Notes: generated by a model from the sequence alone, not told the origin. Shown: positions 2,931 through 32,000, counted from the stretch's first letter. The stretch is 32,000 bases of DNA from Methylotetracoccus oryzae (GCF_006175985.1 NZ_SRSH01000009.1:90719-122718), one strand, 5' to 3'. Translations and numbers: made by a program.

Positions 2931-2969
2931 GGGTTGTCGCGGTGCCCGCGTGCCAGTGGCGGGTTGTCG
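2931..2969. repeat. Direct repeat GGGTTGTCG x2 spaced exactly 30 bp, upstream of the 3012 CDS
   Basis: gggttgtcg occurs at 2931-2939 and again at 2961-2969, 43-81 nt upstream of the ATG at 3012. Function unknown. Confidence 0.4.
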
Positions 2970-3011
2970 GCGTCACCGATTTCGTGCCGTTCGCGGCAAA
3001 GGAGGTTCAAG

Positions 3012-3947
3012 ATGAACGGATGTAAAGCATTGAGGCTCGCAGTACTGGGAGTCGCGCTTTCGCCGGTCGCCGCCGTAGCGGGCGGCTGGGGATTCCTCGC
3101 TCAGGCGCTGATGGTCGAAGACATCAGCTCGAGCCGGAATGGGGGCAGTCTGGCGGCCTATTACGGCGCGGTCGGCGTGAACGTCTTTTCAACGACCAGC
3201 AGTGCCTGGTGCCGGACCGGACTCTACGACGCCACGCACACTCAGTATCTGGCGTTCTGGAACGCGCGCACGTCCGCTCCGACCAGCTTCGGGTTTGGGT
3301 TCGGGTTCGTTGCGCAAAACGATGACTGGGGCACGAACTCGACCGCGATGACGGAGAGTCTGACGTCCACGACCGGTCAAGGCTACGTGGTCGGCAAGGC
3401 CGCTATCCTGGCCGAGGAACTCCCACTGGCGGATTTCGGGATCAATATCCCGGACGCTCAGGCGACCGAGCTTTACCAGGCCTTCATCACCCTGGCGATC
3501 GAGCAGCGCTTGGCAAAGTCGCGCCGTCACTTGGGCGCCGTGCTGGCCCAGGCCGCGAGGCGGCGGACCGACCGCTTCCCGGCGATGCTGGTCGATGCCT
3601 ATGCGGAGACGATCGCCGGCAGCTGCGGTACGGACACGGCCCAGGTTGCCAAGCAGATCGAGCGCCAGGAAAAGGCCTTTCGCCGCCATGTCCAAACCTA
3701 TGGATCGCTGGTCTTTTCGCGCGGAAAAGAGGGCTTTCACTCGATCGTCGCGAATTGGGCGGCGCTGACCGCGGCCGTCTGGAACAACCAGGGTGTCCAC
3801 TCCGTGTCGGCGGTCACGTTGCGGCGTCTGGCCGGATACTACTTGCCGCTCGCCGACGAGTTGATCCGCGACGATTACCTCGCCGAACTCCGGGCGACGG
3901 CCGACCAAGTGGAAACCGAACTGGTAAGACAGTTGTTTGCGCCCTGA
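3012..3947 (+). CDS. Hypothetical secreted protein (uncharacterised)
   Basis: The ORF track starts at 2934. I prefer the ATG at 3012, which is preceded by AAGGAGG (2999-3005) and yields the Sec-type signal MNGCKALRLAVLGVALSPVAAVAGG. High GC3 throughout. S/T/G-rich N-terminal half (GFGFGF) and a helical A/L/R/E-rich C-terminal half. No family recognised. Confidence 0.75.
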   Translation: MNGCKALRLAVLGVALSPVAAVAGGWGFLAQALMVEDISSSRNGGSLAAYYGAVGVNVFSTTSSAWCRTGLYDATHTQYLAFWNARTSAPTSFGFGFGFVAQNDDWGTNSTAMTESLTSTTGQGYVVGKAAILAEELPLADFGINIPDAQATELYQAFITLAIEQRLAKSRRHLGAVLAQAARRRTDRFPAMLVDAYAETIAGSCGTDTAQVAKQIERQEKAFRRHVQTYGSLVFSRGKEGFHSIVANWAALTAAVWNNQGVHSVSAVTLRRLAGYYLPLADELIRDDYLAELRATADQVETELVRQLFAP

Positions 3948-5375: not shown

Positions 5376-5619
5376 GTGGCAATACCTGTCGTAAGGAGCG
5401 GCATTCAGCGATGTCTGGCGGAGAATTCGCCGCCCGTGGCACGACCGAAGTTCGTGCCGACGTGGGGCTTCGCCGAAATCGCTGCAGCGCGGTGGGTGTC
5501 GTTCAACGAGAGCCAGCGGACTTTGCCGCGCATCAGGCCGAGTCGGCCGCGGCGTGAAGATTTGTGGCGATCCCGGTTTGGCTTAAACTAGACGCCGTAG
5601 CGTAGCCACCTTTAGTCAC

Positions 5620-5997
5620 ATGAGCAAGAAGCACTGCATACAGATCGAAGCTGTTTCCCGGTACCTGGAATCCCAATCGGCGCCGGAAGCCGGACGTTAC
5701 GTCTTCTCCTACACGATTACGATCGTCAACAATGGCAGCGTTCCGGCGAAGCTTCTGTCGCGTCACTGGGTGATCACCGACAGTGATGGGAAAGTGCAGG
5801 AGGTGCGCGGTGACGGTGTCGTCGGCGAGCAGCCGCATCTGGTCCCGGGGCAATCCTTCCGCTACACGAGCGCGGCCATGATCGAGACGCCGCTGGGCAC
5901 GATGCAGGGCGAATATCAGATGGTGTCGGACGACGGGCAGCATTTCGATGCCGAGATCGCGCCGTTCGTGCTCGCGATCCCTCGCGTTCTGCACTGA
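5620..5997 (+). CDS. apaG: ApaG (DUF525) protein
   Basis: 125 aa. Contains ...[14 protein letters not shown]...[34 protein letters not shown], which is characteristic of ApaG. Sits immediately upstream of apaH. Confidence 0.9.
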
Positions 5998-6009
5998 GTT
6001 TCTCCGCGC

Positions 6010-6843
6010 ATGGCGCTGCATGCCGTCGGCGACGTGCAGGGCTGTCATGCGGAACTGCTGAGTCTGCTCGACGAAATCCGCTTTGATCCGGCCCGGGATC
6101 GGCTGCTGCTGACCGGGGATCTCGTCAATCGTGGCCCTCGATCGCTCGAGACCTTGCGCCTCATCAGATCGCTGGGAGCGGCAGCGACCACGGTACTGGG
6201 CAATCATGACCTGCATCTGCTGGCAGTGGCCTTCGGGATTTCCCGCACGAAGCGGAAGGACACATTTCACGATGTCCTCGATGCACCGGACCGCGACGAG
6301 TTGCTGAACTGGCTCCGGCGGCAACCACTCTGTCATCGCGAAGGCCGCTACACCTTGGTGCATGCGGGTTTGTCGCCTTACTGGACGGTAGACGAGGCGC
6401 GCGCCCGCGCCGCCGAGGTGGAAGCCGTGCTGCGGGGGCCCGACTGCGCCGCATTCCTGCGCCAGATGTATGGCAATGAGCCGGATCGCTGGTCGGAGCA
6501 GGCGACCGGCTGGGATCGCCTGCGCTACATCGTCAACGCCTTCACTCGCATGCGCTACGTCGCGCCGGATTGGCGGCTCGACTTCCGCGACAAGGGGCTG
6601 CCCGGTACGCAGCGTGACGGGCTCCTGCCGTGGTTCGAGATCCCGGGTCGGCGCAGCGCCGGTGCAGCAATCGTGTTCGGGCACTGGTCGACGCTGGGGT
6701 TCAGGGTGTCGGGCGGATGCCATGCGCTCGATACCGGATGCCTCTGGGGCGGCGAACTGACCGCGCTGCGTCTCGACGGAGTGTCTCAACGGGTTGCAGT
6801 GCCGTGCCTGAACGGAGCCGAGGGTTATCAGCCGAAGGGGTAG
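6010..6843 (+). CDS. apaH: Bis(5'-nucleosyl)-tetraphosphatase, symmetrical (Ap4A hydrolase)
   Basis: Metallophosphoesterase motifs [14 protein letters not shown] and GNHDLHLL, followed by the ApaH-type tail. 277 aa. Confidence 0.92.
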
Positions 6844-15654: not shown

Positions 15655-15687
15655 TTCTCATCTGTGAATGCCGGTCAGGTGCCGACC

Positions 15688-16887
15688 ATGAAACGCGCTC
15701 GTTCCGTTGTTGTTCCGATTGCCGCTGCTGCGGCATGTATGGTCTCGCTGTCCGTGCCGGGTTGGGCCGAAGGTCCGGTTCTCAGCGGTCAGCGATTCCT
15801 GCCGCTGAAAGCCCGGCTCGGGCAGAAACTGTTTTTCGATTCCGACCTGTCCACGCCGCCCGGTCAGTCGTGCTCGAGTTGTCACGACCCGAACAGCGGG
15901 TTCGCGGATCCCGATCCACGCACGCCCACCTCGAAAGGTGTGACCCCAGGCCGCTTCGGTAGTCGCAATGCTCCGACAGCCGCCTACGCGGCCTTCGCTC
16001 CGGCATTCCATTACGACCCGGCTGAGGCGCTTTTCGTCGGCGGACAATTCCTCGACGGTCGCGCCGCGACCCTGGAAGAGCAGGCTGCCATGCCGTTCTT
16101 GAACCCGCTCGAGATGGCCAATCCGGACAAGGCGACCGTCGTTCGGAAGGTGCGCCAAGCTGGCTACGCCGATCTGTTCCGCGCCGTTTACGGGCCCAGG
16201 GCGTTGGCCGAGGTCGATCGTGCCTACGACCGTATAGCAGATGCGATTGCCACGTTCGAGAACACTCGCCTGATGAACCGCTTCAGTTCCAAGTACGACG
16301 CATATCTCGCCGGGAAGGTCGCGCTGACCCCAGCCGAAGCGAACGGGCTGCGTCTGTTCGAGGATCCGGACAAGGGCAACTGCGCCGCATGTCATCCCAG
16401 TGCCCCGGGGCCGGGCCGGACCCCGCCGCTGTTCACAGACTACACCTATGACAATCTCGGCGTGCCTCGCAATCCGGCGAATCCTTTCTACGGTTTGCAC
16501 GCGGAGTTCAATCCGGACCAGCGTGAGTTCGTCGACAGGGGTTTGGGAGCGGTTCTCGCGCGGCCCTCGGAAGACGGAAAGTTCAAGGTGCCGACGCTGC
16601 GCAACGTCGCCGTCAGCGGGCCGTACATGCACAACGGTTACTTCGCCAGCCTTCGGGCAGTGGTTGCCTTCTACAACGATCGTGACGTCAGGCCGGCGTG
16701 CAAGTCACGGTTCGTCAGCGAGGCAAGCGCCTTGCATAGGGGCTGTTGGCCCCGGCCCGAGGTGACCGACAACGTGAATCGGAATGAACTCGGCCGACTG
16801 GGTCTGACCGATCAGGAAGTCGACGACATCGTGGCCTTCCTGCAGACCCTGACCGACGGTTACCGGTTGCCGTCCGTGACGGAGTGA
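15688..16887 (+). CDS. Di-haem cytochrome c peroxidase (CCP/MauG family), periplasmic
   Basis: Signal peptide MKRARSVVVPIAAAAACMVSLSVPGWA. Two CXXCH motifs in the family context: LFFDSDLSTPPGQSCSSCHDPNSGFADP and KGNCAACHPS. C-terminal LTDQEVDDIVAFLQTLTD. The ATG at 15688 is preferred over the track GTG at 15664. Confidence 0.88.
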   Translation: MKRARSVVVPIAAAAACMVSLSVPGWAEGPVLSGQRFLPLKARLGQKLFFDSDLSTPPGQSCSSCHDPNSGFADPDPRTPTSKGVTPGRFGSRNAPTAAYAAFAPAFHYDPAEALFVGGQFLDGRAATLEEQAAMPFLNPLEMANPDKATVVRKVRQAGYADLFRAVYGPRALAEVDRAYDRIADAIATFENTRLMNRFSSKYDAYLAGKVALTPAEANGLRLFEDPDKGNCAACHPSAPGPGRTPPLFTDYTYDNLGVPRNPANPFYGLHAEFNPDQREFVDRGLGAVLARPSEDGKFKVPTLRNVAVSGPYMHNGYFASLRAVVAFYNDRDVRPACKSRFVSEASALHRGCWPRPEVTDNVNRNELGRLGLTDQEVDDIVAFLQTLTDGYRLPSVTE

Positions 16888-16906
16888 CTCCGGTCGCTAG
16901 GCCTGT

Positions 16907-17221
16907 TCACGGCCCGATGGGTTGGTCGCGGCTCAGCCGGACCCAGCCCTGGACGATGCGGTAGACGATCCACATCAGATCGCCGCTGAGGATCATCAGG
17001 CCGAGCGGGCCCGCCATCAGCGTGAGTGCTCCGGCGACGCCCACCGCGAGGCTGATCCAGAATGTCTGGATCTGCCAGCGGAAGTGTGATGCCAGCCATG
17101 AGTTGCCCGCTTTGGGCAGTTGCGTGTGGCTGATGATCGCGCTGATCGGGTAAGTGATGCCGGCAATGACTGCGCCGGCCTGGAGTAGGTAAGCAATTTG
17201 AGCGAGTTGCTTGGTTGTCAT
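16907..17221 (-). CDS. Small integral membrane protein, uncharacterised (tentatively COG3671-like)
   Basis: 104 aa with 3 predicted TM segments and the motif SHFRWQIQTFW. Lies 46 nt downstream of the GlcG-like gene on the same strand. The family assignment is from memory only. Confidence 0.6.
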   Translation of the reverse strand: MTTKQLAQIAYLLQAGAVIAGITYPISAIISHTQLPKAGNSWLASHFRWQIQTFWISLAVGVAGALTLMAGPLGLMILSGDLMWIVYRIVQGWVRLSRDQPIGP

Positions 17222-17267
17222 GACGATGTGCCGGTTTGTTCTCGCTGCGGAGGGGCGTGGTGACTCG

Positions 17268-25619: not shown

Positions 25620-25710
25620 GGTGCCGGCTGATCGGCTATCGTGCCGAGTGCGGATAGTGTAAAACTTCGCGGCGAGAGGTTTGCATCCCTTTTTGCTCGG
25701 CGCCCCGCAC

Positions 25711-25750
25711 AATAAAAACCCCGATCGGCTTTGACGGCCGGTCGGGGTTT
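25711..25750. terminator. Bidirectional rho-independent terminator between the convergent rsmA and lpp-like genes
   Basis: 10-bp stem: ccccgatcgg (25719-25728) pairs with ccggtcgggg (25738-25747), with one G-U pair and a 9-nt loop. Flanked by aataaaaa upstream (TTTTTATT on the minus strand, after the lpp-like gene) and ttt downstream. Confidence 0.7.
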
Positions 25751-25774
25751 CTCGTCTGACGAGTAAGCCGGAGC

Positions 25775-26053
25775 TTACTTCATCATCGACTTCTTGAACA
25801 TGCGGTCGAGCTTCGCATTGACTTCCTCTGAAGCCGCCGCTGCACGGCGAGCAGCAGATTCAGCGCTGGAAGCCTTCGCTTCAGCCGACTGTGCAGCCGA
25901 CAGCGCTTCCTCGGCGGTGCTCTTGATCGAAGCCTGTTCGGCCTTCAGACCATCGATCTGGGTCTGCAGGGCGGTAACGTCAGACTTCGAGGCGCAGCCC
26001 ACCAACAAACCGGTCGACAGCAGCACTACGGACAATTTGGTTGCGTTCAACAT
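25775..26053 (-). CDS. Lpp/OprI-like small alpha-helical outer-membrane lipoprotein with C-terminal lysine
   Basis: Start re-set to the ATG at 26053, preceded by AAGGAAGAAGGAAAG. Lipobox LLVGC|AS. An Ala/Glu/Ser-rich coiled-coil-like body of about 70 aa. Ends ...KKSMMK-stop. Confidence 0.75.
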   Translation of the reverse strand: MLNATKLSVVLLSTGLLVGCASKSDVTALQTQIDGLKAEQASIKSTAEEALSAAQSAEAKASSAESAARRAAAASEEVNAKLDRMFKKSMMK

Positions 26054-26181
26054 AGCTAGCTTTCCTTCTTCCTTACTGAGGTTGATTGAGTCGTTCATCC
26101 ACGCGGGAACTCACGACTCCCGCCCGTTAGTTTGCCGCTATTTCGGCGGATTTTCCACAACTATTTTGGTTTCGCCCTCCC

Positions 26182-26754
26182 TCACCGGATGCTCACCAGC
26201 GTACCTTTCCTGACCCAGTGCGCGAGCCGGTCCACTTGACGGTTGGTCAAGGCTACGCAACCATGCGTCCAGTCGAACAGTTCATGGACATCCGCATTGC
26301 CGCGGCCAACGCCGTGAATGCCTATGCGACCCCCGAGCGGGGTACTTTGCGGTGGGACATTCCGGCCGAAGTGGGCTTCCATGATCTGATTCAGAGTATC
26401 CCCGCCGATCAGGCCTCGGTCGAAAGCACGACGAGCGACCTGCAAATTGGGATAGGTAAAGCCAAAGAATCGATGAAACTGGCTGCTCTCGTTGATCCAG
26501 CCGATCCGATATTCCCCGAGCGGGGTCTTGTCGTCACCGCGTTGCTTGTCAAAACTCGCACCGCGGCGGCCGATCGCGATGCGGGGAAATGATTCCACCG
26601 TCTGTTCGCCGGCCATGACATTCAATTCGTGTGTCTTGGTATCGATCAACAGCCAAGTGTCGGGCGTGTTCGCTGGTCCGGCAATGGCCGAGCAGCAGAA
26701 CGACGTTGCCCACAATGACAGGGAAAGATAGCGCCTCAACGACATTAACCTCAT
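26182..26754 (-). CDS. L,D-transpeptidase (YkuD-domain) family protein, periplasmic
   Basis: Signal peptide MRLMSLRRYLSLSLWATSFCCSAIAG. Catalytic-site pattern IGIHGVG...THGCVALTN (the His/Cys of YkuD-fold enzymes). Confidence 0.8.
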   Translation of the reverse strand: MRLMSLRRYLSLSLWATSFCCSAIAGPANTPDTWLLIDTKTHELNVMAGEQTVESFPRIAIGRRGASFDKQRGDDKTPLGEYRIGWINESSQFHRFFGFTYPNLQVARRAFDRGLIGGDTLNQIMEAHFGRNVPPQSTPLGGRIGIHGVGRGNADVHELFDWTHGCVALTNRQVDRLAHWVRKGTLVSIR

Positions 26755-28483: not shown

Positions 28484-28493
28484 CCGCAACTGT

Positions 28494-28530
28494 CTCGCGT
28501 CCGGGTCCAGGGACGCGAGGCCTTTCTGTC
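28494..28530 (+). terminator. Probable intrinsic terminator of pgm
   Basis: 9-bp stem: ctcgcgtcc (28494-28502) pairs with ggacgcgag (28511-28519) across an 8-nt loop. Followed by the T-containing tract gcctttctgtc. Begins 11 nt after the pgm stop. Confidence 0.55.
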
Positions 28531-28637: not shown

Positions 28638-28757
28638 ATGAGGAGAGCGCCGATGTCGCATCGAATTTCGCGAGTCGTGATGCCAGTGGGTCTGTCCAGC
28701 TGTCCAGGCCGATCCTCATGGCTGTCGATCGCCGCGTCAGCGTATTGCTTTTGCTGA
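28638..28757 (+). CDS. Speculative small ORF (34-39 aa) with a lipobox-like LSSC and a Cys-rich tail
   Basis: The ATG at 28653 is preceded by AGGAGA (28641-28646) with a 6-nt spacer. There is also an in-frame ATG at 28638. Peptide: (MRRAP)MSHRISRVVMPVGLSSCPGRSSWLSIAASAYCFC-stop. GC3 is lower than in flanking genes and the ORF is short enough to arise by chance. Confidence 0.15.
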   Translation: MRRAPMSHRISRVVMPVGLSSCPGRSSWLSIAASAYCFC

Positions 28758-29080
28758 CGTCAGTATTTTTTACACTCCCGGTGCCGGTGCACCAATCCTC
28801 CGTCGACAATGGGCTGTTTGTCGTCGCAGGCAAGGGGTTTATGAGTGTTGGTACGTCACATGCTTGTTCTTTGGGGTAGTCGTTTTCCGAGCGACAACCC
28901 GGATGGCTTGATCGCCATTCGCAGTAAGTCTCGCCGAGCGGCGCTTGTGGCATGGCGTCTGGACTGGAGCGTAAGCCCAGTTGATGCCCCTATCGAGCGC
29001 GGGCGGTGAAGTACAGCCGGGTGAAGACCGACTCGGGTCATTTACGTGAGCGCATATTGTCAATCGAGGTTACGCGACGC

Positions 29081-31549
29081 ATGAGTCATTCGATGGAAAG
29101 TGTTCAATTTCCCTTGCAATCGATGCGGTTATTTGCGGTTGTCCTGATGTCGTTGGGTGCGGCTTCGACGGCGTCCGCCACAACCTCGCTGGTCCGTACC
29201 GCGTACGACAGCATCATTGCCGATAGCACCGGCCAATGCCTTGATCTTGGGCGCGTAGCCGGCTCGCCCAGTGCTGTCGCGCAATGGGATTGCCAGGGTC
29301 AGACGGGGCAGCGCTGGACCATACAGCGCCGGTCCGGCGCCTCCGTGATCATTAATGCCAAGACGCGACGTTGCCTCGCAGTCGAGGGAGACAGCAGTGA
29401 TGCTGGCGCCTCTCTGGTTGAGGCCGCCTGCAACGTGCCCAGTCGCTTCTGGAACGTCTCGCCCTCGGGCAGCCGCTTGCAACTCGTTTCGCGGCAGAGC
29501 GGCCTTTGTGCGACGGTGCGTGGTGCGTCGCGTACGCGGGGGGCGGCCATGGAACTTCAGCCCTGCACCGATGTGTCGCACAAGCGCTTCGTCATCAGTC
29601 GAGGACTCGTGGCGCCGGAGACCTCGGTCCACCTGATCGGTCAGGAAAACGGCCTGTGTGCGGTTGTCCAGGGTGCGCAATTCGCGGCGGGAACGGCAGT
29701 CGTTCAGCAAGCCTGCGGCACGACCCTCAACACACAGTGGACATTGCAGCCGTATGGGGCGGGGGCGGCTGGAGCGTATCGGATTGTTGCCGGCCACAGC
29801 GGTTCCTGCCTGGCGGTCGATGTCGCGACGGATGGGGCAGGGATGCAGTCCGGCGCGCGACTCGTCCAGGTCGCCTGCACCGGTCAGCGAGCCGAACAGT
29901 GGCTGCTTCGCGCTCAGGTGTCTCGCTCGGCCTATCGGCTGGAATCCAATCTGAGTGGCCTTTGCCTCGACGTGGCTGAGGCGAGTCGCGCCAAAGGTGC
30001 TGCGCTGGTGCAAACGGCGTGCAGCAACGCGGCGCCGACGCAGAATTGGACTCTGGCCATCGCCAACCCGCGGGCCTCGTGGGGCAACCTGATCAATCTG
30101 CCGCTGGTGCCTGTGGCCGTGTCGAATCTCCCGGATGGCAGGGTTCTTGGCTGGTCTGCAGGGGCCGAGCTGTATTTCGAAGTGCCGGCTGCGGGCGAGC
30201 CTGCACAGACTCAGTCGGTGGTTATTGACCCCAGCACTGGCGACTGGTCCCAATACCGCGTATCGAACACCAACCACGACATGTTCTGCCCAGGAACCAG
30301 CAACTTGCCGGATGGCAGGCTCCTCGTGTCGGGCGGCAGTTCGAGCCGGCGCACCAGCATATTCAATCCCTTCGAGTCTCTGGCCGATCCGTGGATCCGG
30401 GGACGGCAGATGAACATCAACCGCGCTTATCAGGGCAACACGGTATTGTCGACCGGCGACGTGTTCACGCTGGGCGGATCGTGGAGCGGCGGGATCGGCA
30501 ACAAGACGGGCGAACTTTACTCGACCTCTGCCGACGCCTGGCGTTTGCTGTCTGGCGTGCCGCTGCCGGATACGTCGGACATCATCGGCCCCGATCTCGG
30601 CGGCACCTACCGGGGTGACAATCATGTCGCGTTGTTTGCGCAGCGCGATGGTTGGGTATTCCATGCCGGCCCGAGTGCCCAGATGCACTGGATCGACACG
30701 AAGAACGGCGGCAGCGTGTCGGCCGGGATTCCGCGCGGGGACGACACCTACAGTATTAATGGCAACTTCGTCCTGTACGAGGCCGGTGATGCGAGCCGCA
30801 TCCTGAAGCTTGGCGGCGCTCCCAATTATGATTCCGGTGACGCGTTCGACCGGGCCTATCAGATTGATATCAACCAGAGTCGCAACGTTGCCGTCAAGCG
30901 ACTGGCTCCGATGAATCACCCGCGTACCTTCTCCAACAGCGTGGTTTTGCCCAATGGTCAAGTCATCGTCGTGGGCGGGCAGAGTCGTGTTCGGCTGTTC
31001 TATGACGACGATGCCGTGTTCGAGACGGAACTTTGGGATCCGAAGACCCAGGTGTTCACCAAGCTGAATGCGCCGATTGCGGTAGCGCGCAACTATCACA
31101 GCGTAGCCCTGCTGTTGCAGGATGGGCGGGTACTTTCGGGCGGCAGTGGCCTGTGCGGTGTTAACGCCATGCAATCAACCGGTTGTCCTGGGAATCATCC
31201 GGACGTGCAAATCCTGACTCCCCCCTACTTGCTGAACGAGGATGGCTCGCTGGCAGATCGGCCGGTGATCAGCCAGGCGCCGGCAGTGGCGGCGTTGGGT
31301 GCCACCATCTCGGTCGATACCGACCGGCCGGTCAGTGAGTGGGCGATGGTACGCATGTCATCCACCACCCACACCGTCAACAACGACCAGCGGCGAGTCC
31401 TGCTGAGGCACACCAGTGCCGCGGTCAGAAATCGGTACAGGCTCGCCATTCCGGCAGAGAGCGGTACCGCTTTGCCGGGTTACTGGATGCTGTTCGCACT
31501 CGACGCGCGGGGTGTGCCGAGTGTGGCCAAGACCCTCCAAATCCAATGA
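29081..31549 (+). CDS. Secreted copper radical oxidase of the galactose oxidase type (AA5_2-like) with two N-terminal ricin-B (CBM13-type) lectin domains
   Basis: Signal peptide MRLFAVVLMSLGAASTASA. The start is ATG 29081 (GAGG 11 nt upstream) or ATG 29123; the track GTG at 29006 is unlikely. Six C..C..QxW-type subrepeats (QRW, RFW, KRF, TQW, EQW, QNW) form two beta-trefoils. The downstream motifs are collinear with my recollection of the Fusarium enzyme: WGNLINLPLVP; HDMFCPG (Cys, nt 30287-30289); NRAYQGN (Tyr, 30428-30430); GGSWSGG (Trp, 30482-30484); ARNYHSV (Tyr-His, 31094-31099); TTHTVNNDQRR (His, 31370-31372); and the C-terminal LPGYWMLF...GVPSVA. Confidence 0.88.
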   Translation: MSHSMESVQFPLQSMRLFAVVLMSLGAASTASATTSLVRTAYDSIIADSTGQCLDLGRVAGSPSAVAQWDCQGQTGQRWTIQRRSGASVIINAKTRRCLAVEGDSSDAGASLVEAACNVPSRFWNVSPSGSRLQLVSRQSGLCATVRGASRTRGAAMELQPCTDVSHKRFVISRGLVAPETSVHLIGQENGLCAVVQGAQFAAGTAVVQQACGTTLNTQWTLQPYGAGAAGAYRIVAGHSGSCLAVDVATDGAGMQSGARLVQVACTGQRAEQWLLRAQVSRSAYRLESNLSGLCLDVAEASRAKGAALVQTACSNAAPTQNWTLAIANPRASWGNLINLPLVPVAVSNLPDGRVLGWSAGAELYFEVPAAGEPAQTQSVVIDPSTGDWSQYRVSNTNHDMFCPGTSNLPDGRLLVSGGSSSRRTSIFNPFESLADPWIRGRQMNINRAYQGNTVLSTGDVFTLGGSWSGGIGNKTGELYSTSADAWRLLSGVPLPDTSDIIGPDLGGTYRGDNHVALFAQRDGWVFHAGPSAQMHWIDTKNGGSVSAGIPRGDDTYSINGNFVLYEAGDASRILKLGGAPNYDSGDAFDRAYQIDINQSRNVAVKRLAPMNHPRTFSNSVVLPNGQVIVVGGQSRVRLFYDDDAVFETELWDPKTQVFTKLNAPIAVARNYHSVALLLQDGRVLSGGSGLCGVNAMQSTGCPGNHPDVQILTPPYLLNEDGSLADRPVISQAPAVAALGATISVDTDRPVSEWAMVRMSSTTHTVNNDQRRVLLRHTSAAVRNRYRLAIPAESGTALPGYWMLFALDARGVPSVAKTLQIQ

Positions 31550-31612: not shown

Positions 31613-32000
31613 TCCGCTGTCTCGTTGTTGGTTGCCTGTCCTGCCTGGTCGATGGCAAGCAGGCAGCGGGTGTGCAGAGTCCGCGAGGCACTCTGCCTTC
31701 ACCGTTGCCCCGGGTACGGACGAGACTCGCTGAGGAGCAGGTACTTGCCCGCGAATTGCGGGCCGAAGCACGCATATGGAAAAGGTGGCTCTAGGGCGTG
31801 CCAACAAGAGGCGCTCGGTTGTCCCCTCACTCGATCGGCATGTCTTGCACTGTATTCGTCTCGGTGCACACGCGGGGCGCTCGGGCCGAATCGCTCCCAC
31901 TCACGCGCAGCGCGGATGTAGCTGATCATGGCTCTTTGACTTCCAGCGTGCCATTTGGGCTCTCACCGAATACCTCAGGCGCGTAAAGCGCCTCGACTCG

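Follow-up and report, generated by a model that had tools for sequence, protein, structure and literature searches.

Galactose 6-oxidase of Fusarium graminearum (AA5_2; 1GOF) is built from a sugar-binding module, a kelch propeller and an E-set domain. The same plan is found in the product of a gene at positions 29081..31549 (+) of a 32,000-nucleotide stretch of DNA from Methylotetracoccus oryzae (NZ_SRSH01000009.1:90719-122718; hereafter the window). Related oxidases have been described in bacteria. One is the galactose oxidase of the actinobacterium Pseudarthrobacter siccitolerans (9G43, and 9G8H with galactose; released 2025). The idea that 9G8H might be an ancestral reconstruction (cf. PMC11925331) was rejected, and it is a natural actinobacterial enzyme. 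GlxA of Streptomyces lividans (4UNM), another bacterial copper radical oxidase, has a Cys-Tyr cofactor, and its maturation needs a Sco chaperone and the haem peroxidase DtpA (PMC4736821). Bacterial AA5 proteins fall outside subfamilies 1 and 2, and one characterised Burkholderia enzyme is cited (PMC11267884). As summarised there, an AA5 alcohol oxidase-CE3 fusion from Burkholderia pseudomallei is a characterised bacterial AA5 enzyme (Mazurkewich et al., 2023, FEBS Lett, via PMC11267884).

An original prediction, made from the DNA alone, had described the window product as a copper radical oxidase of the galactose oxidase type whose active site is complete. At the level of the enzyme class, alignments and a structure model support that assignment. 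The reading favoured here, which we regard as likely, is that the product is a functional copper radical oxidase of the galactose oxidase type (CAZy AA5, closest to AA5_2), that it is exported by Sec and tethered by lectin modules, and that it likely acts on a galactose-type substrate. This reading rests on data for architecture, active-site register, fold, selection and distribution.

Catalytic region, fold and gene model

The catalytic part of the protein consists of a kelch beta-propeller domain (residues 331-726; 30071..31258, +) followed by a C-terminal GO-like E-set domain (residues 727-822; 31259..31546, +). The propeller was recognised by phmmer against the PDB (9g8h at 1e-140, 1gof at 3e-104) and by Foldseek (5c86), and its seven blades are presumed from homology to the fungal structures. 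The C-terminal domain matches PF09118 over its full length (3e-20). The Pfam search returned both Kelch_6 and GO-like_E_set, and Glyoxal_oxid_N scored under its Pfam cut-off.

The active-site register was read from a HMMER alignment to Fusarium galactose oxidase (1t2x), with the mature numbering carried over. The alignment spans 470 residues at 44% identity, and all six Fusarium active-site residues are aligned. Cys403 (30287..30289, +) corresponds to C228, the thioether partner, and Tyr450 (30428..30430, +) to Y272, the equatorial copper ligand and radical site. Trp468 (30482..30484, +) is the counterpart of W290, which stacks on the Cys-Tyr cofactor. Tyr672 and His673 (31094..31099, +) match the axial ligand Y495 and H496, and the fourth ligand, H581, is matched by His764 (31370..31372, +), supplied by the E-set domain. 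All six residues are invariant in 88 bacterial ricin-type homologues, and also across 13 sampled fungal and 13 sampled actinobacterial sequences. The five motifs that the original prediction had picked out are present where it placed them, and the correspondence with the fungal ligands that it gave is borne out by the register. Its residue numbers follow an 847-aa open reading frame (ORF), and subtracting 25 gives the 822-aa numbering used here.

An AlphaFold2 model built on an 88-sequence alignment has a mean pLDDT of 90.9 and a pTM of 0.91, with the leader and residues 691-700 as its weak parts. Foldseek against the PDB ranks 9G43 and 9G8H first, then the Fusarium (1GOF) and Colletotrichum enzymes. 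On the domain-only CgrAlcOx structure 5c86 the model gives a TM of 0.94 and an rmsd of 1.9 Å. GlxA and an AA5_1 glyoxal oxidase come far lower, at 18-19% identity. By alignment, the Cys692...Cys702 loop (31154..31186, +; pLDDT 59) is the equivalent of the Fusarium C515-C518 disulfide. Nine residues lie between the two cysteines in the window protein, in its orthologue from Methylolobus aquaticus and in homologue P0002, as against two or three in the other 85 of 88 sequences. Judged from this alignment, the resulting insertion of 6-7 residues is clade-specific.

The oxidase gene is under strong purifying selection. Compared with the M. aquaticus orthologue, Ka/Ks is 0.076 for the whole gene. 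The propeller is the most strongly constrained part (0.039), followed by the C-terminal domain (0.049) and the ricin modules (0.06-0.16). Neighbouring housekeeping genes give 0.04-0.17 in the same comparison. Ks is 0.27 for the oxidase and 0.14-0.28 for its neighbours, and the gene has been vertically inherited since the window and M. aquaticus lineages split.

The longest ORF at the locus is the one of 847 aa, which begins with GTG and spans 29006-31549 (+). The gene model adopted here is complete at 822 aa, running from the ATG at 29081 to a stop codon at 31547-31549. It draws on the ORF list, Pfam, Ka/Ks and the M. aquaticus orthologue, which is 96% identical and is likewise annotated with a length of 822 aa. 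A putative ribosome-binding motif, GAGG (29066..29069, +), was read from the sequence 11 nt 5' of this ATG, and the final ~100 nt before the ATG are nearly wholly conserved in M. aquaticus. On the opposite strand an ORF of 681 aa (29129-31174, -) runs across the oxidase gene. It was rejected as a shadow ORF of a high-GC gene (G+C at first and third codon positions, GC1 and GC3, 0.74 and 0.63).

Leader and lectin modules

Residues 1-33 (29081..29179, +), read by eye from the translation, form a predicted Sec-type signal peptide, in line with the original prediction. An n-region with R16 precedes the h-region LFAVVLMSLGAA, which is followed by STASA and then TT. Neither a lipobox nor a twin-arginine motif was found on reading the leader. 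In the AlphaFold model the leader has a pLDDT of <50-60, with a helix at 12-27. Its Ka/Ks against M. aquaticus is 0.62, relaxed as expected for a leader.

The leader is followed by two ricin-type modules, which do stand, as had been claimed, where the fungal enzyme has its F5/8C domain. The first beta-trefoil covers about residues 38-175 (29192..29605, +) and was assigned from Pfam Ricin_B_lectin and RicinB_lectin_2, from motifs and from a pLDDT of ~90-96. The second covers about residues 180-328 (29618..30064, +), with its best Pfam stretches at 182-323 and 217-311 and with supporting motifs. RicinB_lectin_2 matches at 2e-43 and Ricin_B_lectin at 1e-28 (147 and 100 bits, against cut-offs of 25.6 and 29).

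The original prediction counted six Cys-pair/QxW subrepeats in two trefoils. The trefoils and the pairs are there. The 12 cysteines of the region make six pairs, three subrepeats per trefoil: C53/71, 98/117 and 143/162 in trefoil 1 (1-alpha, 1-beta and 1-gamma) and C193/212, 243/266 and 295/314 in trefoil 2. However, a strict QxW occurs in only two of the six, as QRW in 1-alpha and QNW in 2-gamma. These two are also the sole subrepeats that retain the aspartate of the C-L-D motif. The W position is aromatic in all six and is W itself in five. The ricin B chain has its two active galactose sites in 1-alpha and 2-gamma. Since the same pair is intact here, two functional lectin sites are reasonable, and by analogy the tandem trefoil probably has two active sugar sites, 1-alpha and 2-gamma.

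Relatives, origin and surroundings of the gene

Among the candidates scored in a word-indexed search, 910 were homologues at E<=1e-10. An exhaustive search with the catalytic region against 50%-identity cluster representatives gave 1,676 matches at E<=1e-30. The original prediction had held the characterised members of the subfamily to be overwhelmingly fungal. Rarity in bacteria is not supported by these numbers, and the architecture is common there: all 120 homologues listed combine ricin and galactose oxidase domains. They come from Burkholderia, Caldimonas, Methylopila, Chelatococcus, Polyangia, Acidobacteriota and many metagenomes, and many are already named 'RICIN domain-containing protein' or 'galactose oxidase'. 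Homologues also lie on Burkholderia, Cupriavidus and Streptomyces megaplasmids, and one megaplasmid match overlies adjacent genes annotated 'RICIN domain-containing protein' and 'SCO family protein'. With the catalytic region of 9G8H as the query, an actinobacterial group is retrieved (Pseudarthrobacter, Arthrobacter, Lentzea, Streptomyces) whose members bear F5/8C modules, as the fungal enzyme does. The window oxidase is a new member of a large, under-studied bacterial family and, with thousands of bacterial relatives, a fairly ordinary one.

A neighbour-joining tree was built from Kimura distances (49 sequences, 467 catalytic-region columns, 200 bootstraps). It has no outgroup and does not fix the deep branching order. 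Fungal AA5_2 sequences are monophyletic in it with 100% bootstrap. Another clade with 100% bootstrap unites the window protein, its M. aquaticus orthologue and two proteins from metagenomes (73% and 69% catalytic identity), and it branches within the bacterial ricin-type sequences. In the catalytic region, the window protein is 49-58% identical to bacterial homologues, 53% to the 9G8H parent and 42-48% to fungal AA5_2.

The gene order around the oxidase is identical in M. aquaticus: lptD-surA-pdxA-ksgA-(lpp-like)-ykuD-pgm-oxidase, then a convergent alpha-2-macroglobulin gene. A synteny scan with pgm as the query and one genome per species gave 80 loci, among them Methylococcaceae metagenome-assembled genomes (MAGs; pgm 65-77% identity). 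The original prediction had proposed such a check on the pgm-downstream locus. The scan, which covered the pgm surroundings, found an oxidase homologue within 10 kb of pgm at none of the 80 loci; M. aquaticus has one. The lptD-to-pgm block is conserved in L002, L006 and L007. What follows pgm differs in every Methylococcaceae relative examined (window 28484 onward; L003 10551-14857; L007 11916-19909), with MEKHLA, malate dehydrogenase and glycosyltransferase genes in L007 and TrkH and SoxYZ in L003. The 80 loci without an oxidase and the varied downstream genes point to a synteny breakpoint after pgm and to a lineage-specific oxidase. P0002, the closest homologue outside Methylolobus (67%), is encoded directly 3' of three tandem tyrosine-recombinase (Phage_integrase) genes (L082 183-3384). 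The trio looks like a mobile element of the recombinase-in-trio type.

The composition of the gene is close to that of its host. A check on codon usage had been suggested, and it places the oxidase within the native range, with a slightly low GC3 (0.734 against 0.774 +/- 0.038, z -1.1; leave-one-out codon likelihood z -1.3). The original prediction had pointed to A/T-ending codons early in the gene. Indeed, the first 60 codons have a GC3 of 0.63, whereas 23 other window genes average 0.74 (z -1.8). However, lptD and the gene for a di-haem peroxidase are equally low over their first 60 codons (0.62). The products of both are presumably exported, judging from their families. Native codon usage and a native Ks imply that any transfer was bacterial and old. 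The best reading is that the Methylolobus lineage obtained the oxidase gene long ago from another bacterium and that the gene has since adapted to host composition. Horizontal acquisition as first proposed therefore stands in part. The gene is lineage-specific after pgm and recombinases adjoin its closest homologue, but codon usage, Ks and the lack of flanking repeats or a tRNA speak against a recent event, and the separate, fully supported fungal clade speaks against a fungal source.

The oxidase had also been described as bracketed by the two longest non-coding stretches of the window. This is true of the upstream spacer, which at 597 nt is the longest. The downstream spacer (376 nt) is about equal to a stretch of ~380 nt at 16888-17267. 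Most columns of the upstream spacer, by a large majority, are identical in M. aquaticus. Directly 3' of the pgm stop is a terminator-like hairpin with a T-run (28492..28521, +), conserved in M. aquaticus, which would make the oxidase gene its own transcription unit. A second hairpin within the spacer (28734..28760, +) has a 9-bp stem followed by a U-run (UCAGUAUUUUUU) and contains the palindrome CTGACGTCAG. Its fold z is -2.5, it too is conserved in M. aquaticus, and it could be a terminator or an operator. A simple scan found no sigma-70-like promoter, Rfam and tRNA scans of the window gave no matches, and no direct or inverted repeats were found bracketing the oxidase gene. A 38-codon ORF in the upstream spacer was dismissed as non-genic, since a deletion of 1 nt shifts its frame in M. 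aquaticus.

Beyond the oxidase, the 3' end of a convergent alpha-2-macroglobulin-type gene runs off the window (31926..32000, -; TCA at 31926-31928), as projected from L001 12846-18620 (-) of M. aquaticus. On the other side, a small Lpp-like ORF (25775-26098, -) encodes a lipobox, LLVGC, and an Ala-rich, coiled-coil-like tail, and its product resembles Braun lipoprotein. It adjoins a gene for a YkuD L,D-transpeptidase (26182-26754, -). The apparent gap of 562 nt at 25620-26181 is thus coding, because the Lpp-like ORF lies inside it. Farther away is a gene of the di-haem cytochrome c peroxidase/MauG family (15664-16887, +), the best NCBIfam model for which, 'MbnH family di-heme enzyme', scores 147 bits, far under the cut-off of 363. 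A link between it and the oxidase was rejected. They are 12 kb apart with nine genes between them (HbpS-like, murU/amgK-like, lptD-surA-pdxA-ksgA, ykuD and pgm among these), and the earlier statement that no evidence ties the two together was correct. Three sizeable ORFs (1952-2719, -; 2934-3947, +; 5533-6789, -) have a gene-like GC3 of 0.68-0.79 and no Pfam or NCBIfam match.

Partner genes, proposed function and known systems

In relatives, the oxidase gene tends to have company. A SCO1/SenC gene follows it on the same strand in all four named genomes examined (Burkholderia oklahomensis, Caldimonas brevitalea, Methylopila sp. M107 and a Steroidobacteraceae MAG). A 159-aa ORF between the two is annotated in two of the four, and tblastn finds a homologue of it in a third (L088). 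The regions, all on the oxidase strand, are L084 8418-9507, L086 8394-9469, L087 11080-11646 and L088 8899-9537. Methylopila sp. M107 has two tandem ricin-galactose oxidase paralogues (L087 6001-8349 and 8639-10984) and then one SCO1 gene. A wider sample of 80 metagenomic loci (L089-L168) plus the named genomes held 59 oxidase copies with at least 1.5 kb downstream, a few of them on near-duplicate contigs. Directly downstream and on the same strand, a small ORF with CxxCH is present in 46 of the 59 and SCO1 in 40.

The product of the small ORF has about 150 residues, and CxxCH occurs in 57 of 57 distinct sequences. Other shared motifs are RRGGPxSxY, FCxLLRxGxDP and MPxY, and close to the C-terminus a conserved Cys precedes LW. 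The examples inspected begin, by eye, with a hydrophobic leader. Matches to Pfam cytochrome c models are sub-threshold only, and neither an NCBIfam model nor a PDB relative was found. From these motifs the product looks like an uncharacterised mono-haem cytochrome c. Radical copper oxidases need a one-electron oxidant to reach the active state, and the small CxxCH protein and SCO1 are a candidate maturation or activation module for the bacterial enzymes. By analogy, the cluster recalls the dependence of GlxA on Sco and DtpA (PMC4736821).

The window has no such module. Profile searches of six-frame translations found the cytochrome and SCO1 genes absent at the window, M. aquaticus, L082 and L083 loci, and no relics of them either, the best profile scores being ~3 bits. 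The position that they occupy in relatives is taken here by the alpha-2-macroglobulin-type gene. With neither partner at the locus, the Methylolobus enzyme is a 'solo' copy, which presumably depends on general copper chaperones and oxidants from other loci. A broader scheme can be imagined, although we think it improbable. Bacterial galactose-oxidase-type enzymes would normally be served by a cytochrome and Sco module, for copper loading and one-electron activation. The Methylolobus enzyme would have been rewired to the abundant periplasmic copper-trafficking and cytochrome c/peroxidase systems of a methanotroph, and might modify galactose-containing exopolysaccharide or make H2O2 in methane-oxidising consortia.

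How might the window enzyme work? From the features above we infer its copper loading, cross-link, activity, substrate, lectin specificity and location. The protein would be exported by Sec to the periplasm, or secreted further. One copper would be bound via Tyr450, Tyr672, His673 and His764, the Cys403-Tyr450 thioether would form autocatalytically, and Trp468 would stack on the thioether. The Cu(II)-tyrosyl radical pair would then convert a primary alcohol to an aldehyde and O2 to H2O2. The pocket is most like those of galactose 6-oxidases from bacteria and fungi, which makes the C6-OH group on terminal galactose-type residues the most likely substrate. The tandem trefoil may tether the enzyme to glycans of exopolysaccharide or of cell surfaces, whether of the producer or its neighbours.

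Not everything fits. In Fusarium numbering, the pocket residues F194, Y329, R330, Y405, F441 and F464 are kept, but Asp stands at Q406, Gly at Q326 and Leu at P463, and with these replacements the enzyme could have a substrate other than galactose. Of the sugar-pocket set F194, W290, R330, Q406 and F464, all but Q406 are retained. In the lectin region, four of the six subsites appear degenerate. Degenerate subsites are common in the ricin-type fold, and CBM13/ricin modules can bind sugars besides Gal/GalNAc. The absence of partners that are present in ~70-80% of relatives might impair maturation or activation. In the literature searched, no enzymology was found for ricin-fused bacterial members. 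These points count against the favoured reading. One alternative is that the protein is a copper radical oxidase with another substrate, for instance an aliphatic or aryl alcohol, glycolaldehyde or a different aldehyde (cf. Colletotrichum AlcOx and GlxA). It might, for example, remodel the envelope or exopolysaccharide of the producer, with the ricin modules merely as anchors. AA5_2 enzymes with the same copper site do cover galactose, alcohol and aryl-alcohol oxidase activities (PMC11267884), and GlxA functions in glycan deposition (PMC4736821). The three pocket replacements and the clade-specific insertion in the C692-C702 loop would also suit such an enzyme. However, W290 and R330 are conserved, and it is their mutation that loosens the specificity for galactose in the M-RQW variant (PMC11925331). 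The Gly and Asp at Q326 and Q406 are common to the P. siccitolerans enzyme that was crystallised with galactose. Likeness to GlxA is low as well (18-19% identity). We therefore give a non-galactose substrate some weight but think it unlikely, and galactose-type specificity remains plausible from the pocket residues.

Two further alternatives fare worse. One is that the protein is a catalytically dead lectin or adhesin, or that its gene is decaying. The missing cytochrome c and SCO1 partners, of which no relic is left, and the four degenerate lectin subsites could be taken as signs of this. However, all catalytic residues are intact, the propeller has the tightest Ka/Ks of all domains, the reading frame is intact in two species and the model is of high confidence, and a pseudo-enzyme is very improbable. 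About as little probability can be given to a recently transferred, possibly fungus-derived foreign gene. It would account for the absence of an oxidase after pgm in 80 other genomes, the slightly low GC3, the three tyrosine recombinases beside the closest outside homologue and the homologues on megaplasmids. Yet fungal sequences form a clade of their own, and the window clade is nested in bacterial ricin-type sequences. The composition deviates by a z of only -1.1 to -1.3, the low 5' GC3 is common to lptD and the peroxidase gene, and Ks is in line with the neighbours of a gene that has an orthologue at the same site in M. aquaticus. No tRNA, insertion sequence (IS) element or flanking repeats were found at the locus. 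This alternative is already largely refuted.

A lectin-fused enzyme of the galactose oxidase type in a bacterium is neither an oddity nor a fungal import, but one of thousands of bacterial homologues. Many of these carry annotations already, and a crystal structure exists for one bacterial relative. Ricin-fused bacterial members could be easily expressed biocatalysts for galactoside oxidation. The cluster of oxidase, CxxCH cytochrome and SCO1 suggests a natural system for activation and copper loading, with the Methylolobus gene as a natural control without the cluster. This copy, moreover, belongs to a methanotroph, and copper is central to the physiology of such organisms.

How, finally, does the window protein compare with the described enzymes? 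The closest is that of P. siccitolerans, the best PDB match (E 1e-140) and the best fold match, with 53% identity over the trimmed propeller and C-terminal alignment (44-49% by Foldseek). The two share the copper ligands, the Cys, the Trp, R330 and Y405, as well as G at Q326 and D at Q406. Unlike the window protein, the actinobacterial enzyme has F at the Y329 position, P at 463 and a short Cys-Cys loop, and it carries an F5/8C (discoidin, CBM32-type) module in place of two ricin trefoils. Fusarium galactose oxidase has an N-terminal CBM32, whereas the window protein has two CBM13/ricin modules and a bacterial Sec leader and lies outside the fungal clade that holds the Fusarium enzyme. The B. 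pseudomallei oxidase is listed with characterised AA5_2-type enzymes, and its fused module is an inactive CE3, unlike ricin (PMC11267884). GlxA had been named as the studied bacterial relative and as much more divergent. It is indeed very divergent, with another N-terminal domain, a membrane anchor and a preference for glycolaldehyde, and the window protein scores 145 bits with the NCBIfam GlxA model NF052501, under the cut-off of 800. However, it is not the nearest studied bacterial relative, a place that belongs to 9G43/9G8H. The architecture of the window protein is identical to that of the proteins of B. oklahomensis, C. brevitalea and Methylopila sp. M107, and proteobacterial ricin-type proteins are 40-48% identical to it over the full length and 49-58% in the catalytic region, with invariant catalytic residues.

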